From: Spirochaetia bacterium
GTDB lineage: Bacteria; Spirochaetota; Spirochaetia; SZUA-6; Bin103
Reading direction: 5' to 3'
Assembly: GCA_965208575.1 (NCBI GenBank)
Contig: CBDBOV010000002.1
Coordinates: 480,001-544,000 of the forward strand
Length of the DNA stretch: 64,000 nt
Part shown: positions 6,467 to 25,469 of the stretch, one piece after another
Layout: every line of letters starts with the position of its first letter
Position numbering within the stretch: position 1 is the stretch's first letter
Notes under the pieces: model-generated
What the model was told of the DNA's origin: nothing
Database searches by the model: none
Seen by the model: the letters and a program-made list of their open reading frames with translations, nothing else
Program-made: the position numbers and the translations under genes

Positions 6467-6675
6467 TCGCTCTCCCACGACATGCCGATCACCTCGTCGG
6501 AGTCGCCGATGTATGCCCTGATCGTTGGTTCCTGCAGCCGCGCAAGGCGCGATGGCGACTCCTCGCGCTCGATCACGACCACCGTCCCTTTGCGCTCGAT
6601 CCTGACCGGCCCCTCGCCGGCGGCAACGCGGTCGAACACTGCATAGAGATTCTTCCGTAGCTGCGTCAGAGTCAC
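6445..6675 (-). CDS. Phd/YefM-family antitoxin
   Basis: TLTQLRKNLYAVFDRVAAGE.PVRIERKG; overlaps the PIN gene start; GTG start at 6675 inferred. Confidence 0.82.
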   Translation of the reverse strand: MTLTQLRKNLYAVFDRVAAGEGPVRIERKGTVVVIEREESPSRLARLQEPTIRAYIGDSDEVIGMSWESEWNRLPT

Positions 6676-6841
6676 CCGGTCACGGTACAGCGCGTACGCT
6701 GCACGGTCAAGAACGCGCATTGACTCATCGAAAATCTAACCGTAGCGAAAGCATGCCTCATCTAAAAATCTAACCGAACGGGCTGGACCTTCCGGGTCCG
6801 GTTGGAGCCTCTCCGAGGGACGTGAGGAGGTTCCGGAGGAG

Positions 6842-10729: not shown

Positions 10730-11731
10730 ATGCGGGCCGCGACTCTGGTGGTCGGAGCTGTGCTGCACGTCGCGGCGGTCGCGGTCGCCGAGTCGCCGGC
10801 CCAGGACGCTGCTGCGGCGGCCAACCGGCTGCTGCAAGCGCTCGGTCCGGACCAGGCCCCCGCCGCAGTGCTGCCGCGGGACAGCAGGCTCATCGTCAAC
10901 TGGTCGAACCTGCCGGCGGGCCGGACGGGTTTCGAGCGCAACGGCATTCGCATCGGCGACCTCGGCGTTGGCGCACGCGCCGCGCTGTTCGACTTTCTGG
11001 CGACGGCGCTCAGCGCGGCGGGGGCGGAACTGGTACGGGGGATCATCGCCGCTGAGGACGTGCTGGCGGATTCGCCGCGTGCTTCCGGGCTTGGCTGGCA
11101 CCCCGACAACTACTGGCTGGCGTTCTTCGGCGAGCCGGCGGCGGGCGCTGACTGGAGCTGGCAGTTCGGCGGTCATCACCTCGCGATCAACGTGGCGGTG
11201 ACCGCCGCCGGCGTCATGAGCATGTCGCCGTCGTTCATCGGCATCGAACCGGCGGCGTTCCTGCTGGCCGGCGCCGCCGTGGCGCCGATGCGCGACCACG
11301 CTGCCGGCGGCGCGGCCCTGCTGGGCGCCCTGCCCGGCGACCAGCGCAGCGCGGCGATCGAGGCGGGCCGGCCGCGGGATTTGTACGCGGGCGCCGGCCG
11401 CGACGGCGTGGTCCCGCCGGTAGAGGGCAGCCGTGTGGCCGGCTGGCCGGCGGAACGGCAGCGCCAGCTCCTCGACCTGATCGGCCTGTGGGTGGGGGTC
11501 ATGCCGCCGGCAGCCGCCGAGCACCGGCTCGCGGCGATCGAGGCGGAACTGCCTCAGTTGCGCTTCGCCTGGCATGGACCGGTCGACGGTTCGGGCTCCA
11601 TCTACTACCGCATTCAGGGCCCGACGCTGCTCATCGAGTTCTCGACCCGCGGTTCGCTCGGCGCCGAGGGCGGCCACTACCACTCGATCTACCGCAACCC
11701 CACCAACGAATACGGACGCGGAGATTCGTAG
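10730..11731 (+). CDS. DUF3500-family secreted protein
   Basis: Signal peptide, WSNLP, WQFGGHHLAIN, YYRIQGPTLLIEF, HYHSIYRNPTNEYG. Confidence 0.88.
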   Translation: MRAATLVVGAVLHVAAVAVAESPAQDAAAAANRLLQALGPDQAPAAVLPRDSRLIVNWSNLPAGRTGFERNGIRIGDLGVGARAALFDFLATALSAAGAELVRGIIAAEDVLADSPRASGLGWHPDNYWLAFFGEPAAGADWSWQFGGHHLAINVAVTAAGVMSMSPSFIGIEPAAFLLAGAAVAPMRDHAAGGAALLGALPGDQRSAAIEAGRPRDLYAGAGRDGVVPPVEGSRVAGWPAERQRQLLDLIGLWVGVMPPAAAEHRLAAIEAELPQLRFAWHGPVDGSGSIYYRIQGPTLLIEFSTRGSLGAEGGHYHSIYRNPTNEYGRGDS

Positions 11732-11882
11732 GGCGGCTGAACCCGTGCCCTCGGACGAACGTACCTGGTCGGCGAGGCGGTCGAGGCCACGGGCGGCTTG
11801 GCAAGCCCGGTGGTCGGTTGTGGTCGGTGCTCGCGGCCATGCCGCCGCGGCTCGATGTGATATGGTTGGAGAGGGATCGGCC

Positions 11883-12593
11883 ATGGGCCACGTATTCGCC
11901 GAACTGGAACTCAGCAATCCGCGGCGTGCCGACTTCGTGCCGGTGCGTGTGAATGCGCTGGTGGACACGGGGGCGCTGATGCTGTGCATCCCGGAGCACG
12001 TCGCCCGCCAGCTCGACCTGCATACCGAATCGGTGCGCGAGGTGTCGGTGGCCGACGGCCGCACGGCGACCGTACCGTACTTGGGCCCGGTGAAGGTCGC
12101 CTTCGGGACGCGGTTCTGCTACGTCGGCGCGCTGGTGATCGGCGGCGAAGTGCTGCTGGGGTCAGTACCCATGGAAGACATGGACCTGGTGGTGAACCCC
12201 GGCCGCCGGCAACTAACGGTCGACCCGGCCAGTCCCAACATCCCCCACGCCCGCGTCAAGCGCTCCGGATGGAGCCGTGGAGTTGCCAGAATCGGTAGCA
12301 TGATCGGCAGCGGTGCTGATGCGGCTTGTGGTTCGGTTTCCCTTTTCGACGAACAGATCGGCATCCTGGACTCATGTCGGGGAACCGAGAAGGATGGCAA
12401 CGGACGTAGTATGCTCAGCCCTGCAACGTCCGGCGTACTTTTGCCTCGGTCTCACTATCCAGACGTGCGTTGGCCAGCATGGAAAGAAACCGGTCCCGGT
12501 CGACTTCCGGGGCTATCTTGGGTATGCCCGGGATCTCGATGTGCGTCGATCCGCCTTTCACCGAGAGCTTGTACTCGCCGGGGGCCAAGGTGA
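11883..12593 (+). CDS. Clan AA (retropepsin-like) aspartic protease; family domain ends at ~12270, remainder looks like read-through
   Basis: ALVDTGA catalytic motif, LLGSVPMEDMDLVVNP; the paralogous copy has TGA where this one has TGG. Confidence 0.88.
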   Translation: MGHVFAELELSNPRRADFVPVRVNALVDTGALMLCIPEHVARQLDLHTESVREVSVADGRTATVPYLGPVKVAFGTRFCYVGALVIGGEVLLGSVPMEDMDLVVNPGRRQLTVDPASPNIPHARVKRSGWSRGVARIGSMIGSGADAACGSVSLFDEQIGILDSCRGTEKDGNGRSMLSPATSGVLLPRSHYPDVRWPAWKETGPGRLPGLSWVCPGSRCASIRLSPRACTRRGPR

Positions 12594-13084
12594 TACGGGT
12601 ATGAACGCAGTCCCACTGGTGCAGATGAGCGAGCTCCAGCGCGGCGGCCCTCTCCCTCGCGCGCCAGTCAGCATCATCACCAAACAACTCTCGCAAAGGG
12701 ACAGGCATGGCGGGGGCGTCGCCGAGATCGAGCTCCGAGCCGGCTAGCCGATGGGCCAGTTGGGCCATGCGGTGAGATACCGCGGCGGAGAGGTACTGTG
12801 GCCCCCGGAGCCGGAGCGGAAGGTTGAGCCACCCGTCTCGTACACCGAATAGGATTGCCGCTGCCAGCCAATCCATCTCGCCGAGCCGGTCGCTGTAGTA
12901 GTCGAAGAGGTCTCCACAGTCTCGGTACAGGAAGAACAACGTCATGGCATGCGCAAGGGGAGTGTTGTGCCGTGCGAAGAGCTCGCTGGCCGTGGAGTCC
13001 GCGATGCCGCTCAGTGACTCAAGAGCTATCCCACCGGCCCCTGGGCCGGCGCAGTCATGAAAGAAACAAGGGTGAGCTATAGTG

Positions 13085-13290
13085 TGGGCAGAGTTCTGGG
13101 TGGAGCGCGAAAGTAGGCCGGCGCGTCACTGGCGTTACGTTCTGCGAACCCGTTCAAGAGCTTGGCCCCGGGGCGGGTGGCGTAGTCATTGGTGAGGTTG
13201 TCAGCCGGCGCGGCCGGGTGGCGATCATCCCGTTCAGGAGAATACCTGCTACACACGCCTTGGCCGCACCACTCAGTCGTAGCGGAGGTT
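13085..13290 (+). ncRNA. Predicted bridge RNA of the IS110 element
   Basis: Contains TCAAGAG (13154-13160), equal to target left flank plus core, and TCAGGAG (13234-13240), equal to donor end plus core; TATAGT -10-like hexamer at 13078; RNA ends inferred. Confidence 0.7.
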
Positions 13291-13292
13291 TC

Positions 13293-14681
13293 ATGGCACG
13301 ACGCAGACACAGACGCAAGGGCAAGGGCAGTCGCACAGCGCAACCAAAGGTGATGCACCCGGACGCTGCCGGCTTGGACATAGGCGCTACCGAGGTGTAC
13401 GCGGCTGTGCGCCCGGAGCGCGACCCGGACCCGATCCGGAACTTTGCTACGTTCACCGCGGACCTGCACGCCTTGGCCGACTGGCTCAAGGAATGCGAGG
13501 TCACCACGGTGGCGATGGAGTCCACCGGTGTGTACTGGATTCCGGTGTATCAGATCCTGGAGGCACACGGCTTCGACGTGGTGCTGGTGAATGCGCGTCA
13601 CGTGCACTCGGTACCCGGTCGGAAGTCCGACGTGGCCGACTGCGAGTGGTTGCGCTACCTGCACTCGGTGGGATTGCTGCGCGGCTCATTCCGCCCTGCC
13701 GACGAGGTGTGTGCACTGCGCTCGGTGCTGCGCCATCGCGACACCTTGATCAAGATGGCGTCGCGCAGCGTGTTGCACATGCAGAAGGCGTACAGCCAGA
13801 TGAACGTGCATCTGCACCATGCCATCTCTGACCTGACGGGGACGACCGGTCTGGCCATTACGGACGCTATCCTGGCGGGTGAGCGGGATCCGGCGCGGTT
13901 GGCCGCTCTGGCCGACCGGCGGATCAAAGCCAGCCGCGAGACCTTGATCAAGGCGCTGCAGGGCGACTGGCGCGCCGAGCACCTGTTGGCGTTGCGGCAC
14001 GCGCGAGCGACCTATGCCCACTACCAACAACTCATCACGGAGTGCGATCAGGAAATCGAAGCCGGCATCCGCGCGTTCGAAGCCAGCAGCGAGCCACCCG
14101 GCGCGGTGGGCGACGACCCACCGGATGAGGGAATCGATGCGGAGCCCGAGGCGCCAACCGAGTCACCGGCCAAGCGGTTCGACCTGCGCGGCCACCTTAC
14201 GCACCTGTTCGGCACTGACCTGACGCTGATTCCCGGCATCGGCGAAAGTACGGCGCTGGTTCTGTTCACCGAACTCGGCCCGGAACTGTCCCGCTTTCCG
14301 ACCGCACCGCAATTCGCCTCCTGGCTGCACCTGTGCCCCCACAACCAGATCACCGGCGGCAAGATCATCAGCTCGCACACCGGTCGGGGCACCAATCGGG
14401 CCGCCCAGGCGCTGCACTGGGCGACCCAGTCGTTGTACCGCAGCCCATCGGCCCTGGGCCAGCACTTCCGCCGCATGCGGGCGCGTCTGGGTACTCCCGA
14501 AGCGACCACTGCAGTCGCGCATAAACTGGCTCGGATCATCTACCATCTGATCACGCATCGCGTGGCCTACGATGACAGCATCCTCGCCGCCGAGGAGCGC
14601 CAGGACCGGCGCCGCTTTGAACGCCGGCTCCGAAGGCAGGCACACGCACTCGGTTATGAGCTTGTCCCGGAGGCCGCCTGA
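13293..14681 (+). CDS. IS110-family transposase/recombinase
   Basis: DEDD RuvC-like motifs GLDIG, AMESTGVYW, KSDVADC; IPGIG and ITGGK C-terminal motifs; GGAGG RBS at 13284. Confidence 0.96.
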   Translation: MARRRHRRKGKGSRTAQPKVMHPDAAGLDIGATEVYAAVRPERDPDPIRNFATFTADLHALADWLKECEVTTVAMESTGVYWIPVYQILEAHGFDVVLVNARHVHSVPGRKSDVADCEWLRYLHSVGLLRGSFRPADEVCALRSVLRHRDTLIKMASRSVLHMQKAYSQMNVHLHHAISDLTGTTGLAITDAILAGERDPARLAALADRRIKASRETLIKALQGDWRAEHLLALRHARATYAHYQQLITECDQEIEAGIRAFEASSEPPGAVGDDPPDEGIDAEPEAPTESPAKRFDLRGHLTHLFGTDLTLIPGIGESTALVLFTELGPELSRFPTAPQFASWLHLCPHNQITGGKIISSHTGRGTNRAAQALHWATQSLYRSPSALGQHFRRMRARLGTPEATTAVAHKLARIIYHLITHRVAYDDSILAAEERQDRRRFERRLRRQAHALGYELVPEAA

Positions 14682-15674
14682 TTGTTGTTTCTCAGGAGTG
14701 TCCTGCAGCTTCCTGACGCCCGCCTGCACCCGCGGGTCCAGGGTCGCCGAGGTCTCAGCCAAGTAGTCGAGCAGCACAGTCTCGGGGTTCTTGGCGTTGC
14801 CCGCCTCGCGCCACTTCGCAAGCCGCTCTACGGCTCCCCAGAAGAGGGCTCCCTGATAGGCGTTCTGCAAACTCGTCCGGTCCGTCTCGGGGTCGCGAGA
14901 AGCCAGAAGCGTCGCGGTTCCTTCCCGCATCCAGGGTTCAAGCCCGGCGAGTATCGCGCCGTCATCCGCCGGCACCGGGGAGACGCCCGGCTCGAATGCA
15001 GTCCGGCACGCTCGAACCGCCTGGTCGCCGAGGTTGCCGAAGAGAAACAGCATCGCCGTGACAGCGCCCGCGGCGAGCGGGCGTTCAAGTGGTACGCTCC
15101 GTTCGCGGGGACCATTCTCGGGCGGCCACTCCGTATCACCACCCCTGGCGAACAGCGCCTTCTTCGTCGCGTCCCTCCTGAAGTCCCCCAGAGGAACGTT
15201 GCCGAAGTCCTTCGCGCTCCTCTCGCACACCAGCCTGTCGTCGCGTGACTGGAAAAGAATCGACTCGATCCGGGACGTGGGGAGCGGCGCGGGTACCAGG
15301 AACACCCACTCGGTCCCGTCGACCTCGTGCGGAAACTGGATCTCCCTCAGGCCACCTTGCCCCACAGCAGCTACTCTGCCCGACAACCCGGTGAGGCCGA
15401 TTCGCACAATGACCGGCATGAGGTGTCCCTCCTGCGTGGCCGACTCGACCGCTGTTGCAGGCGCTTGGTCGACGAACAGGGGTATCCAGCCTGGAAAGCA
15501 CTCCAGCGAGTCGCGATAGTACTTCTCGCCAAACCCGGAGGGCGGCATCACCAGACCGGCCGCGAGCATGTACATCAGGTTGAGGTGATTGGTCACCAGG
15601 AGCGCCGATTTGGGCGCTGGAACTTCCTCCTTGGCATCGGACTTGATCAACATCAACTGGTCAGAGTCGGCCAC

Positions 15675-16839
15675 CTACAGCTCCTTGCGCCGCAGCACTT
15701 CCCGGTCGGTGGGCAGAATACTCTCGATGTCACTGCTACGGCCCCGCTTCATGAACATGAACACCCGGTCCCTGGCCCGGGCGATCATCACGTAGAACAG
15801 ACGCCGAGTAACATCGGGATCGTTCCGTCGAAAGTAGTGTTCGTCGATGTCCGCAAGCACTACCGTGTCGAACTCAAGACCCTTGCACGCCTGCGCGTTG
15901 ATCACCAGGATGCCGCCTTCGTCAAAGCGCACCTGGGGACGTTCATCGCCCCAGAACGTGATGATTTTCGGGGGCGCGTTGTCGAGCTGAACGTCTACTG
16001 ACCGAAGCTGCTGCACGTAACGTCGTCTCACTGTGTTCTTTGGCGTGATGATCCCTACGAGCTGGCGCGGGTTTCGGTCGGCAAAACGCACGACAGCGCG
16101 TGCAACCTTGTTCAATCCCCGTTCGTCGTATCGGTAGAGAAGCGGAGTGGGGCCCCGATCGACCGGGGGAATCTCCGGTGGCGGGCTCGCCGGATCGCCG
16201 GTGTAGAACTCTCGCGCCAACCGTGCCACGTGGTAGCGATTGCGATAGTTCCGCTTGAGTTCGACCACCGCGTCCGTATCGATGGCCAAACAGTCCTGGA
16301 TATCCTTCCGACTGCTGTTTTTTTTCGGTAATCTGCTGATTCTGGTCGGCGACGACGAAGAAACGGTCGAAACCAAGTCCCACCAGTGAGTCATAGAACT
16401 GCCGCGGCATGTCCTGTCCTTCGTCAATCACGAGAAACGGACGCTCGCCGTCATCATTCTTGGGCAAGTCCTGGACGATCTGTTCGACACCGCACCACTC
16501 GATCGCCCGGTAGCCGTTGTCGTTCGCATCCTCCAGGGGAGCGGGTCGACCCGTGACCTCCTTGAAGACCTCCCGGAACCAGGCATCCCATGTCCTGCCC
16601 TCGAGCCGGCCGCCGAACAACTGGCCGCTCGCGCGGTCGAGGAGATGATTGAAGACGAGGAACACGTAGCGGTCCCGATCTCTTTGGTGGCGCCTTGCGC
16701 GGAGCAGAGCGAGCACGGTTTTGCCCGTTCCGGGGCCACCGATGACCAGGTGCTGCCCGGCGCTCGGTAGGGCGCGTACTCTCTCCTGCTCCTTGCTCAA
16801 ATCCTGGATACGTGGCAGCACGAATCTGCGATTGGCCAT
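15675..16839 (-). pseudogene. Compact UvrD/SF1-like helicase-ATPase, +1 frameshift in an A8 run
   Basis: GGPGTGKT, IDEGQD, ADQNQQI in ORF 15943-16839; NYRN, KGLEFD, FYV..ARAR in ORF 15675-16427; deleting one T from 16318-16325 gives a single 387-aa ORF. Confidence 0.85.
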
Positions 16840-18716
16840 CAGACGGTCGACTCCGCGTGGTCAGTAAGGGGAGCGATATCGGGCGCGGCGCCGGTGACGA
16901 ATGCGCGGTCGAGGAGAACGTTACCGATAGGACAGCTTGGTTCCGGTACGAGCGCACAAGCGTGGCATGCTGCGCGATTAAGCAGATCCGGCCCATGCCC
17001 TTCCTGTTCCGCGCATACTGGGTCCATCGAACACCAGCTCGCTGCCTCGAATGCTGCGGTCAGCAGGCGAAGGAATTTTAAGGGCTTTGCCATCTCCATC
17101 AGGCCGCCCAGCGATCCCTCCTGGTCGGCGACGGCCACGTAGATCAGAATCCCCGCCATCGGCGCCTTGCCGGTGCGGCTGTAGACGCGTTCTTTCAATG
17201 CGGCGGCCGGATATCCTGCTTCCGCGTCGAGCCGGCGAATGATCAGGTGGGCGAGTGTGTGGCACAGCAGGAAGCGCGGCGACACCTCGACGTGGCCTTC
17301 CGGCGTTGCCTGACCATTGCGGTGGTCGTACCGCTGAGCAAAGGCGTCTGCTCGTCGTTGGAGCGCTTTGCCGGCCTCCCAACGCTGCAGCATCGCCTCG
17401 TCGAGGGTAAAGAAAATCCCCTCTCCATACAGCTCCAGGGCGGGAAGCCAGTCGCTCTCTCCAGTCAGGTCCGGCGGCGTCACGCTCCCGCCCACACGCT
17501 GGAACCCCTTGAGCACCAGGACTTCCTTCAGCCTGTTGATGGCGATGAGCCGCGAGACCGTGCTCGCGACACGTCGCGCGCCGCCTGGAGCGACCTCATT
17601 GCGTAGAGCCTTCCACCCGTCAGTGTGGTGCTCAGTGACGAAGTCCTCGTCTTCCCTCAGGTCGGGGATTCTCTCGGCCAGCGCCCGGTATTCATCCGCC
17701 ATCAGATCCCCGTCCGTAATTGTCTGGTCGTAGAGCGGGTAGCCACCGTCGATCTTCGCAAGCGCGGCCTCGATCTGCTCGGGAGCGCAGCGATACTCGG
17801 TGGCGAGCTGTCTGACCGCGGCCTTCCGTGCCAGGCTGTTCCGAGCGTTCCGAACCCGGTCCTGATTTCGGGCGCTGCCGTACAAGTGGTCGAGGACCGT
17901 GCCGCGCCGGATTCTCGACTCCGGCGGAATGACGAGCGCAGTGCGGGTCATCGGGTAGTGGACCCGCACATTGTTGATATCCATCACCCAAGCCAGCTCC
18001 GCAGATGACTGCGCCGGCCGTTCGCGAAACCAGGGCTGCCGCCACGCGCCGGACGGGAATGCGGTTCGGGGCAGCGAGCCCGACCTCAGGCTGGCGCTCG
18101 ACCTGCAACGCTCGCAGATGATCCGGCGGCCGGCCGGTGTGTCGCTCAGTCGTAGGTAGGGTTCGGTCCAATCAGGGGGACACTGGCGCCGCGCCGGGTC
18201 GCGAGAATCAGCGTGGGCCAAGTCGTGCCAGGGCACGTCTGCCAGATAGCCCTCTTCGTGAACGAGAACCCAGGGCACCTGCTCCAGTCGCCCGCTGCAC
18301 GCACTACTTTCTCCTTCGTGTCCCCAACACTCGCGCGCCCCTCTCCGTGCTCGCCACGGCGCCGGGTGCAGCAAGCCGCACTTCAGACAGCGCATCCAGG
18401 TAGGGAACTTCAGGGCCGGAATCCATCCAAGGGTCTTCCCGTCTCGCTCTGTCGCGCGCGGCGGGCTGCAGAGTGCCTGGTGAATACCGAGGGCGCTCCG
18501 TACCCGCTCCACGTAGCGAATCTCCCGATCCATGGGATCGCTCCCCGGACGATCCCAGGTGCTGGTGTCCTGCACCACCATCAGACTGTCCGCGCCGTCG
18601 CGTACGATAGCGCCGACCGAGCACTCGCGTAACAGGTGGGACAGGCGAACGGGTACGTCTACGTCCTTGTCAGTCATGGACACGTTCGTTCCGCGCCGTC
18701 GCGCGCGGCCACTCAT
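16839..18716 (-). CDS. drmB: DrmB-like DUF1998 protein
   Basis: HTLAHLII, GSLGGL, CSMDPVC...AACHACALVPEPSC...N.LLDR; start may be 18677. Confidence 0.9.
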   Translation of the reverse strand: MSGRARRRGTNVSMTDKDVDVPVRLSHLLRECSVGAIVRDGADSLMVVQDTSTWDRPGSDPMDREIRYVERVRSALGIHQALCSPPRATERDGKTLGWIPALKFPTWMRCLKCGLLHPAPWRARRGARECWGHEGESSACSGRLEQVPWVLVHEEGYLADVPWHDLAHADSRDPARRQCPPDWTEPYLRLSDTPAGRRIICERCRSSASLRSGSLPRTAFPSGAWRQPWFRERPAQSSAELAWVMDINNVRVHYPMTRTALVIPPESRIRRGTVLDHLYGSARNQDRVRNARNSLARKAAVRQLATEYRCAPEQIEAALAKIDGGYPLYDQTITDGDLMADEYRALAERIPDLREDEDFVTEHHTDGWKALRNEVAPGGARRVASTVSRLIAINRLKEVLVLKGFQRVGGSVTPPDLTGESDWLPALELYGEGIFFTLDEAMLQRWEAGKALQRRADAFAQRYDHRNGQATPEGHVEVSPRFLLCHTLAHLIIRRLDAEAGYPAAALKERVYSRTGKAPMAGILIYVAVADQEGSLGGLMEMAKPLKFLRLLTAAFEAASWCSMDPVCAEQEGHGPDLLNRAACHACALVPEPSCPIGNVLLDRAFVTGAAPDIAPLTDHAESTV

Positions 18717-21700
18717 GGATTCTCAACGCCGCGGTGCCTTCCACGTTCCGCATCGAGTGCAAGGTCGCCCACAGGCCGGGACGCGCGTCGCCGTGCGCGT
18801 AGAGCAGTCGGTCGGCGTTTCGTTCGCTGGCCGGCGCTTGGTACTTGAGCTGTCGTCGGCCTTGTTCACAGCGCCGCGCTTCGTCGTGCCACTGTTCGAC
18901 CAGACGTTCGAGATGGCGCTTGGTGTCAGACCGCTGGCCGGAGTCAGCAGCAGCGTGTCCACAACGCCGCTCGAGCTCGGCGATCGCAGCCCGCACTTCG
19001 GGCGCGTTCCGGTCGAAGTTCCCCGCGGATGCATTGCCACGCAGGTCGATGCACGTATGTCGGAGAGCAATGACGAGGACGGCATGGAGCGCACGCGATC
19101 GAACCTGGTGGGTAAAGGGCGTCACACTGCTCGGCTCCACGAAGCGGTAGAAGGATTCGTGGTAGGGGCGGAAGCTCTCGTAGTGAGACAGACTCCGAGC
19201 TTGGTGCCGGTAGTAGTTGGCAAAGATGAGACCAGGAACGTCCCCGCGCCCGACTCGGCTGGTCGCCTGGATGTATTCTGCGGTGGTAAGCGGCTGGCCG
19301 TTCACGACCATCAGTGCAAGGCGCGCCACGTCGAGGCCGACCGATATCATGTTGGTTGCGAGCACCGCGTCCAGGCAGCCATCGGCCTCCCGGCTCCTCG
19401 TTAGTCGCTGAAACGTCTCGGCATTCTCCTCGGCCGGCCGCCGACTTGTGAGCTGAGCAACGCGTGCGTACTGCAACCGCCGTGCCGTGCCGTCCGGTTG
19501 ATGGTCTTGATCGACGAAATCGGGAGCATACTCGTTGTCTCGCTGTTCGGCACGCCCGCCGGTGAGCCACCGTCCGAAGTCGCGTACGTCAGTCATGAAC
19601 GCGTTGTGACTGTTGCCCACTCCTTTGAGGCTACCGTGGTAGATCACCTGGGTCCACCACGCATCGAGCAACGCGTCCCGGTCGGGACGTCCGTCGAACA
19701 CTGCCGGCGGGGCGGCAAGCAACGCCGCGGCGAGCGGCGCGAGGCAACGCTGTTGATCGAGCATCGGCGACAGATAGCCGACATAGAGCCGCCCCGGATG
19801 CTCCCGGTCCGCGCGTGCGAAGTAGGAGTCGTCGTGTGACAGTCCCGGCGGCGGAAGCACGGCAAGCTCGCGCGCATACAGGCGCCGAACCTGCTGCTCC
19901 GCCAACCGGATGGTGGCGGTGGAGGCGACGTACTTTGGACGAACACCGCGCTGGACCAGCAGCGTTTCCAGTCCCGCTTCGTACAGCCCCGCTACCGAAC
20001 CGAGCGGCCCCGTGATCAGGTGCAACTCGTCCTGGATCACCAGCTCCGGCGGACGCGAGCCGTTGCTGACACCGAAGAACGCGCCGGCCCGGTCATCCCA
20101 TGCGAGACGCGCAAACTTGTCGATGGTTCCGACCAGCAGAGAAGGCGGGCGTCGATAGAGCGCTTCGTCCACGACGTTGCAGGGCAGCGGGAGTGAATCG
20201 ATGCCGAAGGCACACTGCCCGGCTGAGCACTGGAAACCGAAGTCATCTCCGGTTGCATGGTAACCCAACTCGACGTCGAACGAGGTGCCGCACCACGGAC
20301 AACGCTCCAGGAGCAGCTTGTAGCGCGCATCCGGTCTTCCATCCCTGATCTCGTCCACCAGCTCCCGAGCCTGGACGAACGTGTTGGGGCTGATCTCGCG
20401 GCCGACCCAGATGCCGATGTCGATGGGTGCCTCACCGAGCCGCGCTGGATTTCCCCTTCGGATCAGTTCCAATGCGCCAACCATGCGCGCCGCACGTTCG
20501 AACTGCTGGCGCGTAAGCAGTCGCAGCGTGTAACGCATGAGGGCGCACGTCCCGCCTCCCGAAGAGGGATGCTTCAGGCGTCGCCATACGATGAGAAACG
20601 CGATGATGCCAAGGTAGGCTTCGGTCTTGCCGCCACCAGTGGGAAACCAGATGAGGTCCAGCACGTCGCGAAACGCGTCTTGTTCCCGGATCACGGACTC
20701 CATGGTCGTGAGCAGGAATGCCAACTGAAACGGACGCCAGCGGTAGGTGCCGGTGTCCCGGCCGGCCACCCGATCTGCCTGGCGCATCTGATCGAGCATG
20801 GCGCGGTTCGCCAACCGAAACGCCTCTTCGGCGAGCGGGTCCGTGCGTAACATCTCGATGCAGGCGCGCATCCGTTTGAGGGCAATGTCCATCCTGCCGC
20901 AGATTCGGTTCGCGGTAGCCCGTTCCTCCCCGTTCGGGAACGCCGACGCGACGCGGATCTGCTCGGCAACCCAGTCGGCGTATCGGTCGACAAAGCGACC
21001 GAGCTCATCCGGTATCGGCGCCGCGGCGAGCCGGGCGAGGGAAAGGACGCCCTCTTCTCCGCACGTTTCGACGGTGATCAGCGGCACTTCAGCTTGGGGC
21101 ATGAATTCGGACCAGATCCGCGCTGGTTGGCCATGTTTCAGGTCCCAGTCCGCCGCAGCACCGTGACCGATGGCGTAGATTCGTAGTCGCCGGTACTGAA
21201 GCTCAAGCTCCTGCTCCTCCTCAGTGAGCAGACTCGGGTCGACTCGTGGGTAGTCGACAAGCTCGCCGTTCTCGATCACGCACTCCAGGCGAGCCTCGAA
21301 CAATGAGTTCTCTACCCGATCGCTTGTTCGGTCGCGACCCGGAGCGGTGGCGTCGAGTTCGGCGCGGTTCGACAGGGTAACGGTCAAGATGAGGCCGTCT
21401 CGATAAGGCCGGGCGCGAGTGTTTATGCTGGCGCGACCTTCCCAGATCCGATTGCTGGTCACGTTGCTTGGAGCAGCGGACCGCGTCCATGTAACGACGC
21501 ACTCCGGAAGCTTTGACCGCTCGTACTGCGGTGGGAGGAATCGGCCCTGCTCGTCACGCCCATGGTTGCGATCCTGGTAGACTGCGGCAAATGGCACGAT
21601 TGAGAGGCGAATATTTCCCCGGACGAAAAACGAGAAGCCAACTGAGGACGGCGGCACGTACCGCCGCCGGCGTGCCGGTTGGGCAACCTGATCATCCTGC

Positions 21701-21930
21701 ACGTCGTCTGATGGTGCCGTGTCCTCCTGGTCGTCGAGGAGGGCTCCCTCCGCTTCCTCTAACCCGGCCGAAGCCGGGTCGATCCCGGCGCGGTCGGAGC
21801 CGATGGGATGCAGCACCCCGGCCGGAAATCGATCCAGCGGGGAGATCCGCAGGCTTCCGTCCCTGGCCGATCCCATGAGCTGGCGGCGCAACCACGCGAC
21901 GAGCACGTTCCTTTCTTCGACGTAGTTCAC
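18670..21930 (-). CDS. drmA: DrmA-like SF2 helicase
   Basis: WRPFQLAF, FPTGGGKTEAY, RYTLRLLT, QDELHLITGPLG, ATNMISVGLDV, AEYIQATSRVGR. Confidence 0.92.
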   Translation of the reverse strand: MNYVEERNVLVAWLRRQLMGSARDGSLRISPLDRFPAGVLHPIGSDRAGIDPASAGLEEAEGALLDDQEDTAPSDDVQDDQVAQPARRRRYVPPSSVGFSFFVRGNIRLSIVPFAAVYQDRNHGRDEQGRFLPPQYERSKLPECVVTWTRSAAPSNVTSNRIWEGRASINTRARPYRDGLILTVTLSNRAELDATAPGRDRTSDRVENSLFEARLECVIENGELVDYPRVDPSLLTEEEQELELQYRRLRIYAIGHGAAADWDLKHGQPARIWSEFMPQAEVPLITVETCGEEGVLSLARLAAAPIPDELGRFVDRYADWVAEQIRVASAFPNGEERATANRICGRMDIALKRMRACIEMLRTDPLAEEAFRLANRAMLDQMRQADRVAGRDTGTYRWRPFQLAFLLTTMESVIREQDAFRDVLDLIWFPTGGGKTEAYLGIIAFLIVWRRLKHPSSGGGTCALMRYTLRLLTRQQFERAARMVGALELIRRGNPARLGEAPIDIGIWVGREISPNTFVQARELVDEIRDGRPDARYKLLLERCPWCGTSFDVELGYHATGDDFGFQCSAGQCAFGIDSLPLPCNVVDEALYRRPPSLLVGTIDKFARLAWDDRAGAFFGVSNGSRPPELVIQDELHLITGPLGSVAGLYEAGLETLLVQRGVRPKYVASTATIRLAEQQVRRLYARELAVLPPPGLSHDDSYFARADREHPGRLYVGYLSPMLDQQRCLAPLAAALLAAPPAVFDGRPDRDALLDAWWTQVIYHGSLKGVGNSHNAFMTDVRDFGRWLTGGRAEQRDNEYAPDFVDQDHQPDGTARRLQYARVAQLTSRRPAEENAETFQRLTRSREADGCLDAVLATNMISVGLDVARLALMVVNGQPLTTAEYIQATSRVGRGDVPGLIFANYYRHQARSLSHYESFRPYHESFYRFVEPSSVTPFTHQVRSRALHAVLVIALRHTCIDLRGNASAGNFDRNAPEVRAAIAELERRCGHAAADSGQRSDTKRHLERLVEQWHDEARRCEQGRRQLKYQAPASERNADRLLYAHGDARPGLWATLHSMRNVEGTAALRIHEWPRATARNERVHD

Positions 21931-22042
21931 GAGGTGAGTGGTGCCTTGCGTATAGGGAGTGGATACTCCCGTGCGCTATTCTGTACTTATAGTTCACATT
22001 TCGGCAAGTAGTGTAACGCATCGGTGAATCGGGATCATTTGC

Positions 22043-22243
22043 GTGGGCCAAGCGTTACTGAGCTGCAACTCAGCAGTCCGCGGCGCACCGACTTCGTGCC
22101 GGTGCGGATGAATGTGCTGGTGGAGCGATCGAGCCGACGCTCTGCATTCTCGGTGGCGAAGCCCGACAGCGGGCGAACGACGGTAGATGGTCGACCCGGA
22201 TAGTCCCACCATCCCCCACACCCGCGTCAAGCGCTCCGGATGA
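22043..22243 (+). pseudogene. Decayed, internally deleted copy of the clan AA protease gene
   Basis: 22043-22124 aligns to the 5' end of the gene at 11883; 22189-22242 matches 12218-12271 at 50/54 and ends in TGA. Confidence 0.85.
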
Positions 22244-22643
22244 AGCGGTGCGAATGCGACAAGCGGTGGTGGCGGGCGACGAAGTCGGCACCCACCGCTC
22301 CGGTCGGCACGGCAGCAGATGGGGGACCGAGCGGGCTGCCGCGGGTGGCGGTGGTCGTGAGGGCCCACGCACCGGGCGGGTCGGACCATCTTTTGCAGCG
22401 CGGGGCGGGTTCCTGTCGACCTGCACCAAAATAACTGCAGAAAATCGGGCGCAGGGGTTGACGCACTTTTCCGCTGCCGCTGAGGGCCGCTGGCGGGCCG
22501 TGAAGCCCGGCAATGGTCTGCGACCGTCAAGTGGCCGACCGCGTGCCCCTGGAGCCGCCGATTCGCGCCCCAGTGGCGCTGCAGGTGCCGGATCGAGGAC
22601 CTGCCAAGAAGTGCTATCTACCGGCCAGTGGTATATTTAAGGC

Positions 22644-25469
22644 ATGACAAACATGACCGGCGGGACCGCCAGACGACCCTTCAGCTCACTCGGCGATCAG
22701 CAGCTCCTGGAGCAGACCCGGCGCCTGGCGGCCAACCAGCGCGGCCTCGAAGTGCACATCCTGGACCATCTCGACGAGATCGACCGGCGTGGGCTGGCGC
22801 TGCGGCGCGGGTTCTCGAGCCTGTTCGACTACGCGGTGCGGGAGTTGCGGTTCACCGATGCGGCCGCGCAACGGCGTATTCAGACCATGAGGTTGTGCCG
22901 GCGGCATGGCTGGGTGCGGGCCATGCTGCACAGCGGCGAGTTGAGTGTGACGTCGGCGGCGCAGTTGGAGACCGCGTTTGGCGCCGCCGAGCGCCAGTGC
23001 CGGAGAGCGAGCGCGCCCGTCGATCAGGAGCGCTGCCAAGCTCTGCATGGGCTGCCTGCGGTGCCGAGCGGAGCGGGAGATCAGGATGCCGAAGCGTCGG
23101 GAGCGGGGATGGCCGGTGCCGCGGCGGTGGCGGCATCGGCGCCGCCCGGCGTGGCCGCCGTCGCCCAGGAGCTCGGTGACGCCAGAGGCTGCGGGGCCCG
23201 GCATACCGGGAGTGACGGCTGCAGGCGACTGTCGGTCGAGCCGGAGGTGCGGTCGCTCGATGACGCCGGAAGCCGCGAGGAGCGGCATGCAGAGCGCGAC
23301 CGTTGCAGGCGATCGTCGGCCGACTCGGAGGCGCAGTCGCTCGGTGACGCCGGCGGCCGCGGGGACCGGCATACCGAGAGCGACCGTTGCAGACCATCGT
23401 CGGACGGCTTGGCGGCGCAGTCGTCCCGTGGCGTCGGGGGCCGCGAGGACCGGTATGACGGGAACGACGGCTGCAGACGGCTGTCGGCCGGGCCGGAGGC
23501 GCGGTCGCTCGGTGACGCCGGCGGCCGCGAGGAGCGGGATGCCGAGAGCGACCGTTGCAGGCGATCGTCGGACGGCTCGGCGGCGGTCGGTGCCCGCCCG
23601 GCAGCGGCGGGTGCGCAGCCGGTGGGCCGATGGGACTCGAGTGCGGCCACCTCGGGCGCTGCACCGGCTTCGACGGCCGCCACGCTGCACGCGCCGCCGC
23701 CTGCGGCGCCGGGGCGTGTACCGCGGCCCGGGCTCACGGGTACTGAGGCCGCGACCACGCCGGTGGTGCCGGTGACGAGCCACGCGGCTGCGCAGCACCG
23801 CGGCGCCCGGCATGGCGATGCGCTGCCGGCGCGCCGGGAGTCGAGCGGAGCCGCCGGGCACTCTCCGGCACCGTTGCGCGCTTCCGGTGCCGCCGTGGCC
23901 TCCTCGGACCAGGGCCCGGCGGCGCCACTGCTGCCGCCGGCGAGGGGCGCCGAGCCGGGACCGTTGCCGGTCGTGGCCCCATCGGAGCCGCGGCTCACCG
24001 CTGCGCTCGCACCGGCGCCGTCGCGGGGTGATCGGAACCCGGAACCGTGTTCCGACCCGGAACTGCGGTCCGGCCCGGAGCGGTCCGCCGGGCCGGTGTC
24101 CGCCGCCGCGCTGCTGCACCCGCGGCGGCAGCGCGAGCTGATCGAGCAGGCCGCCGGCATGACCACGCGCCAGGTCGCCGGCCTGCTGGCCAGTGCCGCT
24201 CCGCAGGTGGCGCCGCCGCGCGACACGCTGCGTGCGGTGGCGCCGGACCGCTACACGTTGAAGGTGAGCATCGACCAGGAGTGCGAGCAGGGACTGCGCC
24301 ACCTGAAGGACCTGCGGTCGCACGTCGACCCGCGCATGTCGTGGGGAGACCTGGTGGCGCGCCTGGTGCGCGAGGCGGTGGCGCGGCACGACCCGCGCGG
24401 CGGCGGTGGCAGGCGGGGGCGTACGGGCGGCACGGCAGCATCGTCGCGGCGGGAGCGGACCGGCACACCCTCGGTCGTGGCGGCGGCCGCGGCCGGCGGG
24501 GAGCAGCCGCGGGCCGCGACGATCCGCAACGCTGCCGGGGTGCGCGGCGTTGCGCCCGCCGCCCCGACGGGCGGTGCAAGGTCGGTTGGCGCCCGCGCAG
24601 GTGCCGCTGTTTCGGCCCCGCCCGCCGTTACAGCGGCGCCGGAGGGTCGGAGCGCCGGCGGCGGCCCCGCCCACGGCACTGGTGCGACGCGGATCCCGCG
24701 GGCCACGACTGCGCCGCCGAGGTTGGCCAGCGGCGGGCCCGCCGGCGGCGCTGATGCCACGGGGATCCGGCGGGCCACGAGTGCGGCGCCGAAGTTGGTC
24801 AGCGGCGGCTCTGCCGACGGTGCAGATGCGACGCCGATCCGATCGGCAACGACTGCGGCGCCGGAGTTGGTCAGCGGCGGCTCTGCCGACGGTGCAGATG
24901 CGACGCCGATCCGGTCGGCAACGACTGCGGCGCCGGAGTTGGTCAGCGGCGGCTCTGCCGACGGTGCAGATGCGACGCCGATCCGGTCGGCAACGACTGC
25001 GGCGCCGGAGTTGGCCAGCGGCGGCTCTGCCGACGGTGCAGATGCGACGCCGATCCGATCGGCAACGACTGCGGCGCCGAGGTTGGTCAGCGGCGACCCC
25101 GCCGACGACGCTGGTGCCACGCGGATCCCGCGGGCAACGACTGCGGCGCCGAAGTTGGCCGGCGGCGTGCCGCCTGCGCGTGGTGCGGGCGGCACGCCGG
25201 GGAGAGCATCGCCGCAGTGCACCCGCGATGCTCCGCTCGGCCCGCGCCGGTCGCCGCCGCGGCGCACCATTCCGGCGGCTGTCCGGCGTTACGTCTGGCT
25301 GCGCGACGGGGGGCGCTGCCGCTATCGGGATCCGCTCACCGGTCGCCGCTGCAATTCGTCTCACCTGCTACAGATCCACCACCTGCTGCCAGTTGCCGAG
25401 GGGGGCGGCCCGGAGCCGGAGAACCTGGTTCTCGCGTGCCTGGCGCACCACCGCATGTGTCACGCCTAA
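22644..25469 (+). CDS. HNH endonuclease with DUF222-like N-terminus and repeat-expanded linkers
   Basis: HLDEIDRR...GFSSLFDY N-terminus; C-terminal VWLRDGGRC...C...IHH.LP...GG...NL.LAC..HH. Confidence 0.88.
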   Translation: MTNMTGGTARRPFSSLGDQQLLEQTRRLAANQRGLEVHILDHLDEIDRRGLALRRGFSSLFDYAVRELRFTDAAAQRRIQTMRLCRRHGWVRAMLHSGELSVTSAAQLETAFGAAERQCRRASAPVDQERCQALHGLPAVPSGAGDQDAEASGAGMAGAAAVAASAPPGVAAVAQELGDARGCGARHTGSDGCRRLSVEPEVRSLDDAGSREERHAERDRCRRSSADSEAQSLGDAGGRGDRHTESDRCRPSSDGLAAQSSRGVGGREDRYDGNDGCRRLSAGPEARSLGDAGGREERDAESDRCRRSSDGSAAVGARPAAAGAQPVGRWDSSAATSGAAPASTAATLHAPPPAAPGRVPRPGLTGTEAATTPVVPVTSHAAAQHRGARHGDALPARRESSGAAGHSPAPLRASGAAVASSDQGPAAPLLPPARGAEPGPLPVVAPSEPRLTAALAPAPSRGDRNPEPCSDPELRSGPERSAGPVSAAALLHPRRQRELIEQAAGMTTRQVAGLLASAAPQVAPPRDTLRAVAPDRYTLKVSIDQECEQGLRHLKDLRSHVDPRMSWGDLVARLVREAVARHDPRGGGGRRGRTGGTAASSRRERTGTPSVVAAAAAGGEQPRAATIRNAAGVRGVAPAAPTGGARSVGARAGAAVSAPPAVTAAPEGRSAGGGPAHGTGATRIPRATTAPPRLASGGPAGGADATGIRRATSAAPKLVSGGSADGADATPIRSATTAAPELVSGGSADGADATPIRSATTAAPELVSGGSADGADATPIRSATTAAPELASGGSADGADATPIRSATTAAPRLVSGDPADDAGATRIPRATTAAPKLAGGVPPARGAGGTPGRASPQCTRDAPLGPRRSPPRRTIPAAVRRYVWLRDGGRCRYRDPLTGRRCNSSHLLQIHHLLPVAEGGGPEPENLVLACLAHHRMCHA
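23172..23580 (+). repeat. 84-bp (28-aa) degenerate coding tandem repeat, ~5 units
   Basis: ctcg(g/a)tgacgcc at 23172, 23256, 23340, 23508 with a diverged unit at 23424. Confidence 0.85.
24705..25160 (+). repeat. 72-bp (24-aa) coding tandem repeat, ~6 units
   Basis: TTAAPELVSGGSADGADATPIRSA; acgactgcggcgccg at 24849, 24921, 24993, 25065, 25137. Confidence 0.93.

Follow-up and report, generated by a model that had tools for sequence, protein, structure and literature searches.

What does the minus-strand operon at 12415-21930 of the window (the whole 64-kb stretch of DNA analysed here) encode, and does this copy still work? It holds four coupled genes, DrmA, DrmB and two further genes, g3 and g4 (Table 1). 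We read the region, with a probability of about 0.6, as a methylase-free DISARM relative that is conserved and horizontally mobile, and of which this copy was inactivated recently.

Table 1. Features of the cassette and its upstream region (window coordinates)
Feature	Position	Strand	Description
AT-rich stretch	21931..22030	-	immediately 5' of DrmA; candidate promoter region
DrmA	18670..21930	-	SF2 YprA-type helicase, 1086 aa, apparently intact
DrmB	16839..18716	-	OB-CON-DUF1998 zinc-binding DrmA partner, 625 aa, apparently intact
g3	15675..16839	-	minimal UvrD/Rep-type SF1 ATPase, 387 aa if intact; broken by +1 frameshift
A8 homopolymer	16318..16325	-	site of g3 frame shift
g4 5' part	14696..15674	-	residues 1 to ~326: DarT-like fold (predicted) + first ARH-like part (predicted)
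IS110-family insertion sequence	13026..14695	+	inside g4; transposase 13218-14681
g4 3' part	12415..13025	-	residues ~326 to 528: remaining ARH-like fold (predicted) + C-terminal domain

Operon layout and the two lesions in the window copy

The initial annotation described four tightly coupled minus-strand genes, a GC content below that of the flanks, an AT-rich upstream region and a helicase core of DrmA plus a DUF1998 protein, and all four descriptions hold. An internal DrmB ATG at 18677, which gives a protein of about 612 aa, shows an 8-nt overlap with the DrmA stop; between DrmB and g3, stop and start codon have one base in common (TGATG at 16839), and the g4 start, a GTG at 15674, directly abuts the g3 stop TAG. 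Without the insertion sequence, the cassette has 63.9% GC, compared to 68.3% and 67.8% in the flanks, and its GC3 is 0.72–0.75 versus 0.85–0.95 for the adjoining housekeeping genes. The stretch upstream of DrmA has 49% GC versus 67% for the window; a sigma-70 consensus scan of 12000-22700, this stretch included, revealed no promoter-like sites. DrmA matches PADLOC DrmA (PDLC02575, E 9.1e-195) and Pfam Helicase_C (E 1.1e-7), its translation contains the motifs GxGKT, DELH, and QATSRVGR, and its two aligned pieces are 91% and 87% identical to the sister-species copy. DrmB matches PADLOC DrmB (PDLC02583, E 4.1e-56) and Pfam MZB (MrfA Zn-binding, DUF1998; E 1.4e-7), and a Cys cluster is present in its translation.

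The g3 gene is split over two frames (16318-16839 and 15675-16322) that join at the A8 run, where the window reads GAAAAAAAAC and the sister species, in frame, reads GAGAGAAAC. Logan contigs from two runs (X1 and X3) of one sample, probably the source sample, agree with the window across 16259-16900, showing neither differences nor gaps. The g4 gene is interrupted by an IS110-family element of ~1.67 kb with CTC on either side, whose transposase matches Pfam DEDD_Tnp_IS110 (E 7.3e-20) and Transposase_20 (E 1.1e-11); the genome carries 14 further copies of this element at 100% identity. The 5' piece of g4 (P0001) aligns to residues 1 to ~325 of intact homologues of 527–531 aa, and the 3' piece (P0002) to their C-terminal 200 residues. 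In the sister species, the cassette is intact and the IS110 site in g4 is empty; among homologous loci, g3 is a single uninterrupted ORF in 52/52 and g4 is open in 51/52. The window copy is thus dead, with g3 frameshifted and g4 cut by the IS110 element: both lesions behind the earlier mention of a "repaired operon" are real, and the copy as it stands is non-functional.

The g3-g4 pair and the predicted fold of g4

The g3 protein matches the Pfam models AAA_19, UvrD-helicase, and UvrD_C_2, and against PADLOC-DB 2.0 it gave only weak GajB-type matches. Across 33 aligned homologues, the residues of Walker A (GGPGxGK), DEGQD, DQNQQ, and KGLEFD are invariant, and internal positions vary in NYRN and VARAR. 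The g3-g4 complex was predicted with an ipSAE of 0.84 (3/3 runs; best of three controls 0.00), at least 91% of the predicted contacts were common between runs, and partner pLDDT was at least 85. Of 80 solved complexes, 58 reach the ipSAE mark of the tool, as do 2 of 110 mismatched pairs; these counts are only rough because the alignments used were the author's own. Judged by the model's own confidence, g3 and g4 quite likely bind as a heterodimer.

The g4 product had been called an unknown 528-aa protein, and it matches no Pfam or PADLOC family; its AF2 model (pLDDT 88.5, pTM 0.89), however, has recognizable predicted folds. By prediction only, residues ~15-180 form a DarT-like ADP-ribosyltransferase fold, residues ~195-425 an ARH/DraG-like ADP-ribosylhydrolase fold, and the C-terminal end a small beta/alpha domain (pLDDT 87.4 for the last 100 aa modelled alone). 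In Foldseek, the best eight matches were all DarT (best E 5.6e-5, TMt 0.57). VIA aligned g4 with DarT (Z 10.3, rmsd 3.3, 154 aa), DarT1 (Z 9.9), ARH3 (Z 12.1, rmsd 3.7, 213 aa), and two ART-ARH toxin/immunity entries (Z 12.1 and 10.0), scores to be read against the chance Z of ~12–14 that is frequent for helical folds. Pfam, PADLOC, a PDB profile search, and hhalign revealed no significant sequence similarity of g4 to DarT or ARH.

We then compared 108 g4 sequences with 10 DarT sequences by hhalign (152 columns), with the numbering of Thermus DarT anchored via the E160A crystal sequence and residue roles taken from the accessible part of PMC11543638; the residue mapping may be wrong, since the alignment has an E of 0.01 and a probability of 4%. 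DarT H13 falls on g4 position 26 (L66, F17, M9), Y71 on position 67 (F in 100/108), and E160 on position 124 (A39, L27, V15). As the DarT triad positions are hydrophobic in this weak alignment, g4 is probably a pseudo-enzyme, and we lean towards a non-catalytic adaptor.

The alternative that g4 is active appears unlikely. DrmAB and g3 would unwind invading DNA, the DarT-like domain would ADP-ribosylate the exposed ssDNA through non-canonical residues, and the ARH-like domain would serve as a built-in antidote or reset, the whole being a helicase-guided DarTG-like effector. DarT is indeed the best structural match of residues 15-180, the middle domain has ART-ARH toxin/immunity pairs among its best matches, and DarT modifies ssDNA, not dsDNA, according to the accessible part of PMC11543638. 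The conserved polar set of g4 (T28, N29, N32, K51, Y53, D55, E82, and N159) may form a non-canonical active site: T28, N29, N32, Y53, D55, and E82 lie outside the predicted g3 contacts and could line a pocket, and in the alignment K51 and Y52 stand opposite the RR motif containing DarT R51. Catalysis is nevertheless disfavoured by the hydrophobic H-Y-E positions across 108 diverse members in the sole alignment obtained, by the absence from residues 195-425 of any D, E, or T with at least 85% conservation, which leaves the ARH-like domain without a conserved acidic residue at that level, and by the Pfam DarT and ADP_ribosyl_GH models, which match 0 of the ~30 family members scanned.

Conservation, neighbours, and partner genes of the cassette

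Homologues of g4 were gathered from 56 loci (32 Pseudomonadota, 20 Acidobacteriota, and 4 Chloroflexota; MAGs), which were examined with 10-kb flanks. The cassette is widespread: the order of the six query pieces (DrmA, DrmB, two of g3, and two of g4) is identical in 52/56 loci, at 38–74% protein identity to the window across three phyla, and in homologous loci the four genes are intact, fixed in order, and translationally coupled. Decayed copies beyond the window were found in L011, L019, L052, and L057. Closer to the window, g4 is present in 1/10 other genomes of the same genus, 0/13 of the same family, and 0/37 of the same order. The flanks differ between loci, and 18 of 77 scanned neighbour ORFs (14/41 loci) match PADLOC models at E ≤ 1e-15, including type III and IV restriction enzymes, AbiL, AbiEii, HerA, PsyrTA, SoFic, and PDC-S01/S11, although those in L009 (trypsin-like) and L024 (ankyrin) are perhaps not genuine defence genes. 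Known defence genes thus adjoin the cassette in only 14/41 loci, and many neighbours are housekeeping genes. From this context, we infer with good confidence a defence or anti-MGE system, probably an anti-phage one.

MrfA is a DNA-repair enzyme of the YprA family, and UvrD-type ATPases and ARH-fold proteins have roles in repair and in the reversal of ADP-ribosylation. The cassette could accordingly be a DNA-repair or genome-maintenance module in which an MrfAB-like YprA helicase, a UvrD-type helper, and an ADP-ribose-related factor handle, for example, ADP-ribosylated or cross-linked DNA. The accessible part of Bell et al. 2025 (bioRxiv 10.1101/2025.09.15.676423) does describe a DNA-repair branch within the YprA-family helicases, and the many housekeeping neighbours are compatible with such a role; we consider it improbable, however, as the DrmA/DrmB split is, in the same part of that source, consistent only in the DISARM branch, and the DISARM DrmA and DrmB models score best by far. 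The patchy distribution (1/10 other congeners, 0/50 other relatives searched), the spread over three phyla at the identities given above, the ready decay of the window copy and four others, and the restriction, Abi, and TA genes often beside the cassette likewise speak for defence rather than repair.

No methylase, DrmC, DrmD, or DrmE is conserved with the cassette in the 56 loci. The 87 nearest upstream ORFs are a mixture of housekeeping and unrelated defence genes, with a single methylase, which forms a pair with an SfiI-type restriction enzyme; no methylase and no PLD protein occurs among the 24 scanned downstream ORFs. A genome search with PF13091, PF02384, PF00145, and PF01555 gave no match within the 64-kb window, and PADLOC-DB 2.0, which has no g4 model, names only DrmA and DrmB in the cassette. 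The initial annotation was right about the missing DISARM partners, and the test it proposed, whether the four-gene order is conserved without a methylase, gave the predicted result; its reading, with g3 and g4 in place of the usual accessory genes, is supported, with the caveat that 25/56 loci, all Pseudomonadota, add a NERD-SF1 nuclease-helicase gene (NERD E 1.8e-9; PADLOC RTasNERD-Hel E 2.5e-35) that abuts g4 and in most of the 25 begins 7–13 nt past it. Neither the window nor any of the 24 Acidobacteriota and Chloroflexota loci has this fifth gene, and the four-gene form contains no recognizable nuclease.

A truncated canonical DISARM that lost its methylase, DrmC, and DrmD or DrmE, with g3 and g4 as unrelated neighbours, is highly improbable: the window copy is visibly decaying and a canonical class 1 DISARM (DrmMI-DrmA-DrmB-DrmC) occurs in the same phylum (L094), but the four genes recur together in 52/56 loci, in identical order with coupled junctions and no accompanying DrmC or methylase, g3-g4 binding is predicted, and the window DrmA is only ~34% identical to the L094 DrmA. 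The claim of a methylase-free DrmAB-type system is thus supported, and we regard the cassette as an unnamed methylase-free DISARM-like variant. The accessible part of Bell et al. 2025 mentions "many uncharacterized DISARM-like ... classes", and the clade may already be listed in its supplementary tables.

Relation to known systems and proposed mechanism

DISARM classes 1 and 2 reportedly consist of DrmA, DrmB, and DrmC with either DrmMI and DrmD or DrmMII and DrmE. The cassette resembles them in its coupled operon and its split YprA-type helicase, in which DrmA precedes a distinct OB-CON-DUF1998 protein, DrmB, both recognized by DISARM models; it differs in its distant DrmA, in lacking a methyltransferase, the PLD protein DrmC, and SNF2 DrmD or DrmE, and in having a mini-UvrD ATPase, a predicted DarT/ARH-fold protein and, sometimes, a NERD-helicase. 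ARMADA type II (ArmA-D), as far as the accessible part of Bell et al. 2025 describes it, likewise combines a YprA-family helicase with a GajB-like helicase of the UvrD family, encoded downstream and linked to a toxin-type domain (RelE fused to ArmD), much as g3 is predicted to bind the toxin-derived ART/ARH-fold g4. However, the cassette lacks the BrxHII-like helicase and the PglX-like methylase of ARMADA, as well as the fusion of its YprA helicase to OB-CON-DUF1998, and the two systems differ in their toxin-type fold, which in the cassette belongs to a separate protein. The predicted folds of g4 echo the writer-plus-eraser logic of DarT/DarG, whereas g4 shows no sequence-level membership, has hydrophobic triad positions in the alignment obtained, carries an ARH-like eraser-type fold instead of a macrodomain or NADAR, and sits in a helicase operon as a predicted SF1 ATPase binder. 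The fifth gene shares a NERD nuclease domain and SF1 helicase core with RTasNERD-Hel and Nhi-like proteins. Nhi is a stand-alone defence, whereas the fifth gene is an add-on to a DrmAB operon; a related DrmA-DrmB-NERD-helicase locus (L093) lacks g4.

The accessible part of Bravo 2022 describes DrmAB as the ssDNA-loading, translocating DISARM core, and the DrmAB of the cassette is presumably such an ssDNA-loading ATPase. In our preferred reading, with g4 as a non-catalytic adaptor, DrmAB would load onto ssDNA-containing ends of invading DNA and then translocate. As there is no cognate methylase, self would carry no methylation mark, and invading DNA would have to be told apart from self by DNA structure or replication intermediates. 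The g3-g4 pair would be the accessory module, in which g4, apparently derived from an ART-ARH toxin/antitoxin-type fusion by erosion of its canonical catalytic residues, would now bind DNA or nucleotides and act on the SF1 motor as an adaptor or regulator. In the Pseudomonadota versions, the downstream NERD-SF1 nuclease-helicase would provide the DNA cutting.

Organization and decay of the DrmAB cassette

The cassette (12415–21930) consists of four reading units that are contiguous on the minus strand with zero gaps between them. An internal ATG of DrmB at 18677 gives an 8-nt overlap with the DrmA stop codon, one base is common to the DrmB stop codon and the g3 ATG (TGATG), and the GTG of g4 directly follows the g3 stop codon, TAG. 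Leaving out an insertion sequence (IS) within g4, the cassette has a GC content of 63.9%, compared to ~68% in both flanks; its GC3 is 0.72–0.75, compared to 0.85–0.95 in neighbouring housekeeping genes, and the GC content of the 100 bp preceding DrmA is 49%. Taken together, the coupled junctions, the PADLOC and Pfam identities, and the base composition confirm the initial annotation, which had described four tightly coupled minus-strand genes in a block lower in GC than its flanks and preceded by an AT-rich region. A promoter and terminator scan of the cassette region returned no promoter-like sites and five terminator-like sites, with 6.2 expected.

Features of the cassette and its surroundings (window coordinates)
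Feature	Position	Strand	Description
DrmA	18670–21930	−	1086 aa; PADLOC DrmA PDLC02575, E 9.1e-195; Pfam Helicase_C
DrmB	16839–18716	−	625 aa; PADLOC DrmB, E 4.1e-56; Pfam MZB (DUF1998), E 1.4e-7
g3	15675–16839	−	Pfam UvrD_C_2, AAA_19; weak GajB-type matches
g4	GTG start at 15674	−	no Pfam or PADLOC match
IS110-family element	~13026–14695	+	within g4; transposase 13218–14681; CTC on both sides
941-aa ORF	22644–25466	+	divergent from DrmA; in a stretch of 77–79% GC
Aspartyl protease ORF	11574–12593	+	retropepsin-like; real part ~11900–12300; Asp_protease_2, E 1.1e-6
PIN-domain gene	6086–6720	−	
rve integrase gene	6842–8113	+	
Transposase_29 gene	8262–9932	−	
2375-aa ORF	32622–39746	−	GC3 0.91

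Judged by their sequences, DrmA and DrmB of the window look intact. The frame of g3 changes within an A8 homopolymer (16318–16325); in a congeneric sister species, whose cassette is 91% identical at the DNA level, g3 reads GAGAGAAAC at this position and encodes an uninterrupted 387-aa protein. Logan contigs from two runs of one sample, which is probably the source of the genome, cover 16259–16900 with no differences and no gaps; the extra g3 base is therefore present in the sequence data rather than introduced by the assembler, a single sample being no independent proof. The g4 gene is split by the IS110-family element, which the sister species lacks at this site, and the two resulting pieces match the N- and C-terminal portions of intact 527–531-aa homologues. 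The genome contains 14 further copies of this element at 100% identity; the 15 copies, that of the window included, are spread over five of the six contigs, and two form an adjacent tandem pair on contig C4. The tandem pair and the identical copies suggest a very recent burst. All copies of the element carry a few additional bases at each end that resemble the g4 target (CTCTTGAG vs. CTCCTGAG), which hints at a target-site preference. The same two runs also contain a second, diverged version of g4 (region 14600–16900): one contig, with 59 differences in 527 bases, begins at the IS junction and continues into non-IS sequence; the community thus seems to harbour an IS-free relative as well.

The PIN-domain, rve integrase, and Transposase_29 genes mark the downstream side of the cassette as a mobile-DNA patch, in which the PIN gene and a small ORF upstream of it are likely a VapBC-type pair. 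The aspartyl protease ORF lies on the other strand just downstream of g4, and its annotated frame overlaps the 3′ end of g4. Just upstream of DrmA, the segment with the 941-aa ORF does not align to the sister-species locus; this ORF has only a C-terminal HNH match (E 1.2e-4) and no PADLOC match.

Distribution of the cassette and comparison with known systems

A word-indexed search with the N-terminal piece of g4 found 653 proteins at E ≤ 0.001 among 8000 candidates scored, none of which carries a name or a Pfam domain, and in a full HMM search 643 cluster representatives (clusters at 50% identity) scored E ≤ 0.001, 236 of them E ≤ 1e-30. When one genome per species was surveyed, g4 was encoded at 56 loci, all in MAGs: 32 in Pseudomonadota (22 Gamma, 9 Alpha, and 1 unassigned), 20 in Acidobacteriota, and 4 in Chloroflexota. 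The order DrmA-DrmB-g3-g4 with all six query pieces was present at 52 of these loci; the exceptions lack DrmA and DrmB (L011), DrmA (L019), or DrmB and the 3′ part of g4 (L057), or reach a contig edge (L061). Among the 52 full loci, g3 is a single open frame in all and g4 in 51, the interrupted one being L052. Two genomes have two copies each: a Vicinamibacterales record (L050 and L051) and a Gammaproteobacteria record (L033 and L052), in whose second copy g4 is interrupted by ~1.85 kb and the DrmB match ends early. Amino acid identity to the window proteins is 38–74% across the three phyla. Among the relatives of the window genome that were searched, the cassette was present in 1 of 10 other genomes of the same genus, 0 of 13 of the same family, and 0 of 37 of the same order. 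No match to g4 was obtained by tblastn in 72,556 plasmid or 50,697 phage records. Nine of the 24 sequencing runs listed as sharing words with the window stretch are labelled sponge metagenome, and the listed runs that match the window include no RNA run; of four runs compared with the window, two sponge-metagenome runs from two studies contained related sequence, mostly 85–99% alike, in 30 and 29 of 30 bins. The cassette appears to move among Pseudomonadota, Acidobacteriota, and Chloroflexota with shared sponge habitats.

The initial annotation had placed no methylase, DrmC, or DrmD in the cassette, and Pfam and PADLOC scans agree. A profile search of the genome gave no match in the 64-kb window to the DNA methylase families PF02384, PF00145, and PF01555 or to the PLD family PF13091, whose nearest match is at C2:582691, ~39 kb past the window end, and PADLOC gave no DrmC match among the cassette proteins. 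At the other loci, the 87 nearest upstream ORFs included one methylase, paired with an SfiI-type restriction enzyme; the others encode LptD, HPPK, amidases, GST, UbiD, transposases, and unrelated defence genes. No methylase or PLD protein was found among 24 downstream ORFs scanned, and a PLD domain occurred among flank ORFs only in type IV restriction-like proteins of two loci, L007 and L008. DrmD and DrmE models matched neither the cassette proteins nor any of 81 ORFs scanned with PADLOC, the flank scan taking in 77 of the 216 flank ORFs selected. All-against-all clustering of flank ORFs recovered no neighbours common to the loci except one gene just downstream. The conserved order at 52 of 56 loci and these flank scans thus bear out a four-gene cassette that is kept without a methylase.

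Additional genes follow g4 in some lineages. A fifth gene of ~527 aa is present after g4 in 25 of the 56 loci (25 of 32 in Pseudomonadota and 0 of 24 elsewhere), in most of them starting 7–13 nt past g4, and is absent from the window and the sister species. Its product combines a NERD nuclease domain with an SF1 helicase core (Pfam NERD, E 1.8e-9; PADLOC RTasNERD-Hel, E 2.5e-35) and also weakly matches the Nhi and AbiO models. In seven Acidobacteriota loci (L036–L041 and L060), two same-strand genes of 499 and ~574 aa lie ~270 nt downstream of g4; the proteins have no Pfam or PADLOC match and no counterpart in the window. The two genes are confined to these loci, whose upstream and downstream genes are also shared, and may be either lineage-specific extensions of the cassette or simply syntenic neighbours.

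Like class 1 and class 2 DISARM, the cassette has a DrmA helicase and an adjoining, separate DUF1998 protein, DrmB; unlike them, it is without a PLD-family DrmC, a cognate methyltransferase (DrmMI/DrmMII), DrmD (SNF2), or DrmE. Two loci from the phylum of the window have other arrangements: L094 is a textbook class 1 DISARM (DrmMI-DrmA-DrmB-DrmC), and L093 (G436:C48:1-16000), a methylase-poor variant, encodes a UvrD-like helicase, DrmA, DrmB, and a NERD-SF1 helicase, followed on the opposite strand by a 509-aa protein containing an RNA polymerase alpha CTD-like domain, a 1140-aa protein of no assigned identity, and a DrmMII-like C5 methylase, whose gene is ~5 kb away. Compared to ARMADA as presented in the main text of Bell et al. 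(2025), the helicase is here split into DrmA and DrmB, and BrxH and PglX matches were absent among the cassette proteins; a parallel can be drawn to ARMADA type II as described there, in which a RelE toxin domain is fused to the UvrD-type helicase that follows a YprA helicase. The main text examined (10.1101/2025.09.15.676423) mentions "many uncharacterized DISARM-like ... classes" and does not name the cassette. In the literature searched, no paper paired DrmAB with an ADP-ribosyltransferase-like or mini-UvrD protein, and the "DISARM-like" operons in the available parts of PMC11090510 (McrBC-linked) and PMC10270631 (ShdA/RmuC-linked) are different from the cassette.

The g3 and g4 proteins and their predicted complex

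By its sequence, g3 is a minimal UvrD/Rep-type SF1 ATPase (Pfam UvrD_C_2, E 4.2e-9) of 387 aa, without the long accessory domains of UvrD. GGPGxGK, DEGQD, DQNQQ, and KGLEFD are invariant in 33 g3 sequences, and NYRN and VARAR contain variable positions; these correspond to Walker A, DExx, and motifs III–VI.

Sequence-level searches linked g4 to no known family. The window pieces, an intact homologue, and 20 diverse family members had no Pfam match at E ≤ 0.01, DarT (PF14487) and ADP_ribosyl_GH (PF03747) included, and PADLOC gave none; the best hit of a PDB profile search had E 0.18, to unrelated chains. With hhalign, 40 g4 sequences aligned to DarT over only 27 columns (E 0.14), and the middle domain matched none of nine ADP-ribosylglycohydrolase (ARH) genes of the same genome, in a comparison whose ARH alignment was contaminated by opposite-strand translations. 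A protein atlas placed g4 in unnamed clusters (0.93–0.95), with a weak lead (0.76) to a cluster with ADP_ribosyl_GH. The window genome itself encodes nine separate PF03747 genes above the Pfam cut-off and has no DarT (PF14487) match.

The closest intact homologue was modelled with AlphaFold2 from 40 sequences, with high confidence (pLDDT 88.5, pTM 0.89). In a Foldseek search of this model against the PDB, DarT entries take the first eight ranks (E 5.6e-5 at best; target TM 0.57), and ARH3 and DraG rank lower. The independent aligner VIA divides the model in two: residues 14–181 resemble DarT (Z 10.3, rmsd 3.3, 154 of 210 residues), DarT1 (Z 9.9), and Tpt1 (Z 8.1), and residues 195–423 resemble ARH3 (Z 12.1, rmsd 3.7, 213 aa), ARH1, and DraG-type proteins, with ARH-fold matches at Z 9.4–12.1, as well as two ART-ARH toxin/immunity entries (Z 12.1 and 10.0). 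Helical folds attain such Z values by chance; against this, ARH-fold proteins make up 8 of the top 12 rows. The last 100 residues, modelled alone (pLDDT 87.4), resemble no fold clearly; their best matches are a PIAS1 SAP-type domain (Z 4.8) and FAN1 region 455–533 (Z 4.6), scores too weak to claim DNA binding.

The residue roles of DarT, namely the H-Y-E triad H13/Y71/E160 of the Thermus enzyme, were taken from the available part of PMC11543638, with numbering from the Thermus crystal sequence, in which the E160A substitution marks the catalytic column. An hhalign comparison of 108 g4 sequences with ten natural DarT sequences runs end to end and is weak (152 columns, E 0.01, probability 4%); agreement of the flanking motifs (T-x-x-x-N-L...G, P-[FL]-[YF], and L-[VI]...L-P...I-E-x-I) lends it some credit. 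In this weak alignment, the H13 column falls on g4 position 26 (L66, F17, M9 of 108), the Y71 column on position 67 (F in 100 of 108), and the E160 column on position 124 (A39, L27, V15). ARH and DraG proteins have a conserved acidic metal site. In residues 195–425 of g4, no D, E, or T reaches 85% conservation among the 108 sequences. Because the positions weakly aligned to the triad are hydrophobic and the ARH-like part has no conserved D, E, or T, we read the modelled g4 as a former ART-ARH fusion, of the writer-eraser, toxin-antidote type, whose canonical active sites would have been lost.

The conserved polar residues of g4 (T28, N29, N32, K51, Y53, D55, E82, and N159) may leave room for a different active site. 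A domesticated DarT-ARH fusion that is still an enzyme would be held by the mini-UvrD protein, be fed ssDNA by DrmAB, and ADP-ribosylate invader DNA non-canonically (e.g., through K51, Y53, D55, and E82), giving immunity free of a methylation mark across phyla in sponge-associated bacteria; we consider this unlikely. If it were true, it would constitute helicase-targeted DNA ADP-ribosylation immunity without a methylation mark.

The g4 protein probably forms a complex with g3, as judged from structure prediction. With row-matched alignments from 33 loci, the pair reached an ipSAE of 0.84 in three of three runs (best of three controls, 0.00), with at least 91% of contacts common to the runs and a partner pLDDT of at least 85; 58 of 80 solved complexes attain the predictor's own mark, as do 2 of 110 mismatched pairs, rates that are approximate, with self-built alignments. 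The predicted contacts join the invariant N-terminal L8, P9, and I11 of g3 (ELPGIQD) to g4 residues 31–38 and 155–160 in the DarT-like domain, and further g3 contacts extend to the ARH-like domain.

Candidate role in defence

Several features argue for a candidate role in defence: the DISARM-type split helicase, the patchy presence among relatives, the spread over three phyla at diverged identities, a GC3 below that of host genes, the frequent decay of the cassette, and window surroundings with a PIN gene, two transposase/integrase genes, and an HNH protein. Known defence genes are also the nearest neighbours in 14 of 41 loci, a count based on the 18 of 77 scanned flank ORFs that match PADLOC at E ≤ 1e-15; two of the 14 (L009 and L024) may not have true defence genes. 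Against this role count the housekeeping genes among many neighbours and the absence of a recognisable nuclease from the four-gene form.

DISARM is thought to separate self from non-self through its methylase. A methylase-free cassette would instead need to recognise invader-specific DNA structures or replication intermediates. As outlined in the available part of Bravo (2022), DrmAB is autoinhibited until DNA bearing a 5′ overhang activates it; the DrmAB core of the cassette would likewise stay inactive until it meets such DNA. The g3-g4 pair would then supply a second motor and a nucleotide- or ssDNA-binding adaptor, and the NERD-helicase, where present, would cut DNA.

As a conserved natural variant that keeps only DrmAB and has exchanged all other parts, the cassette offers a clean system in which to ask what this core senses and does without methylation. 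Its apparent movement across phyla bears on gene flow in symbiont communities. The g4 protein defines an unannotated family that numbers at least 643 clusters (50% identity), and the cassette would add a case in which an ADP-ribosylation pair of the toxin-antitoxin type was turned into a probably non-catalytic helicase partner.
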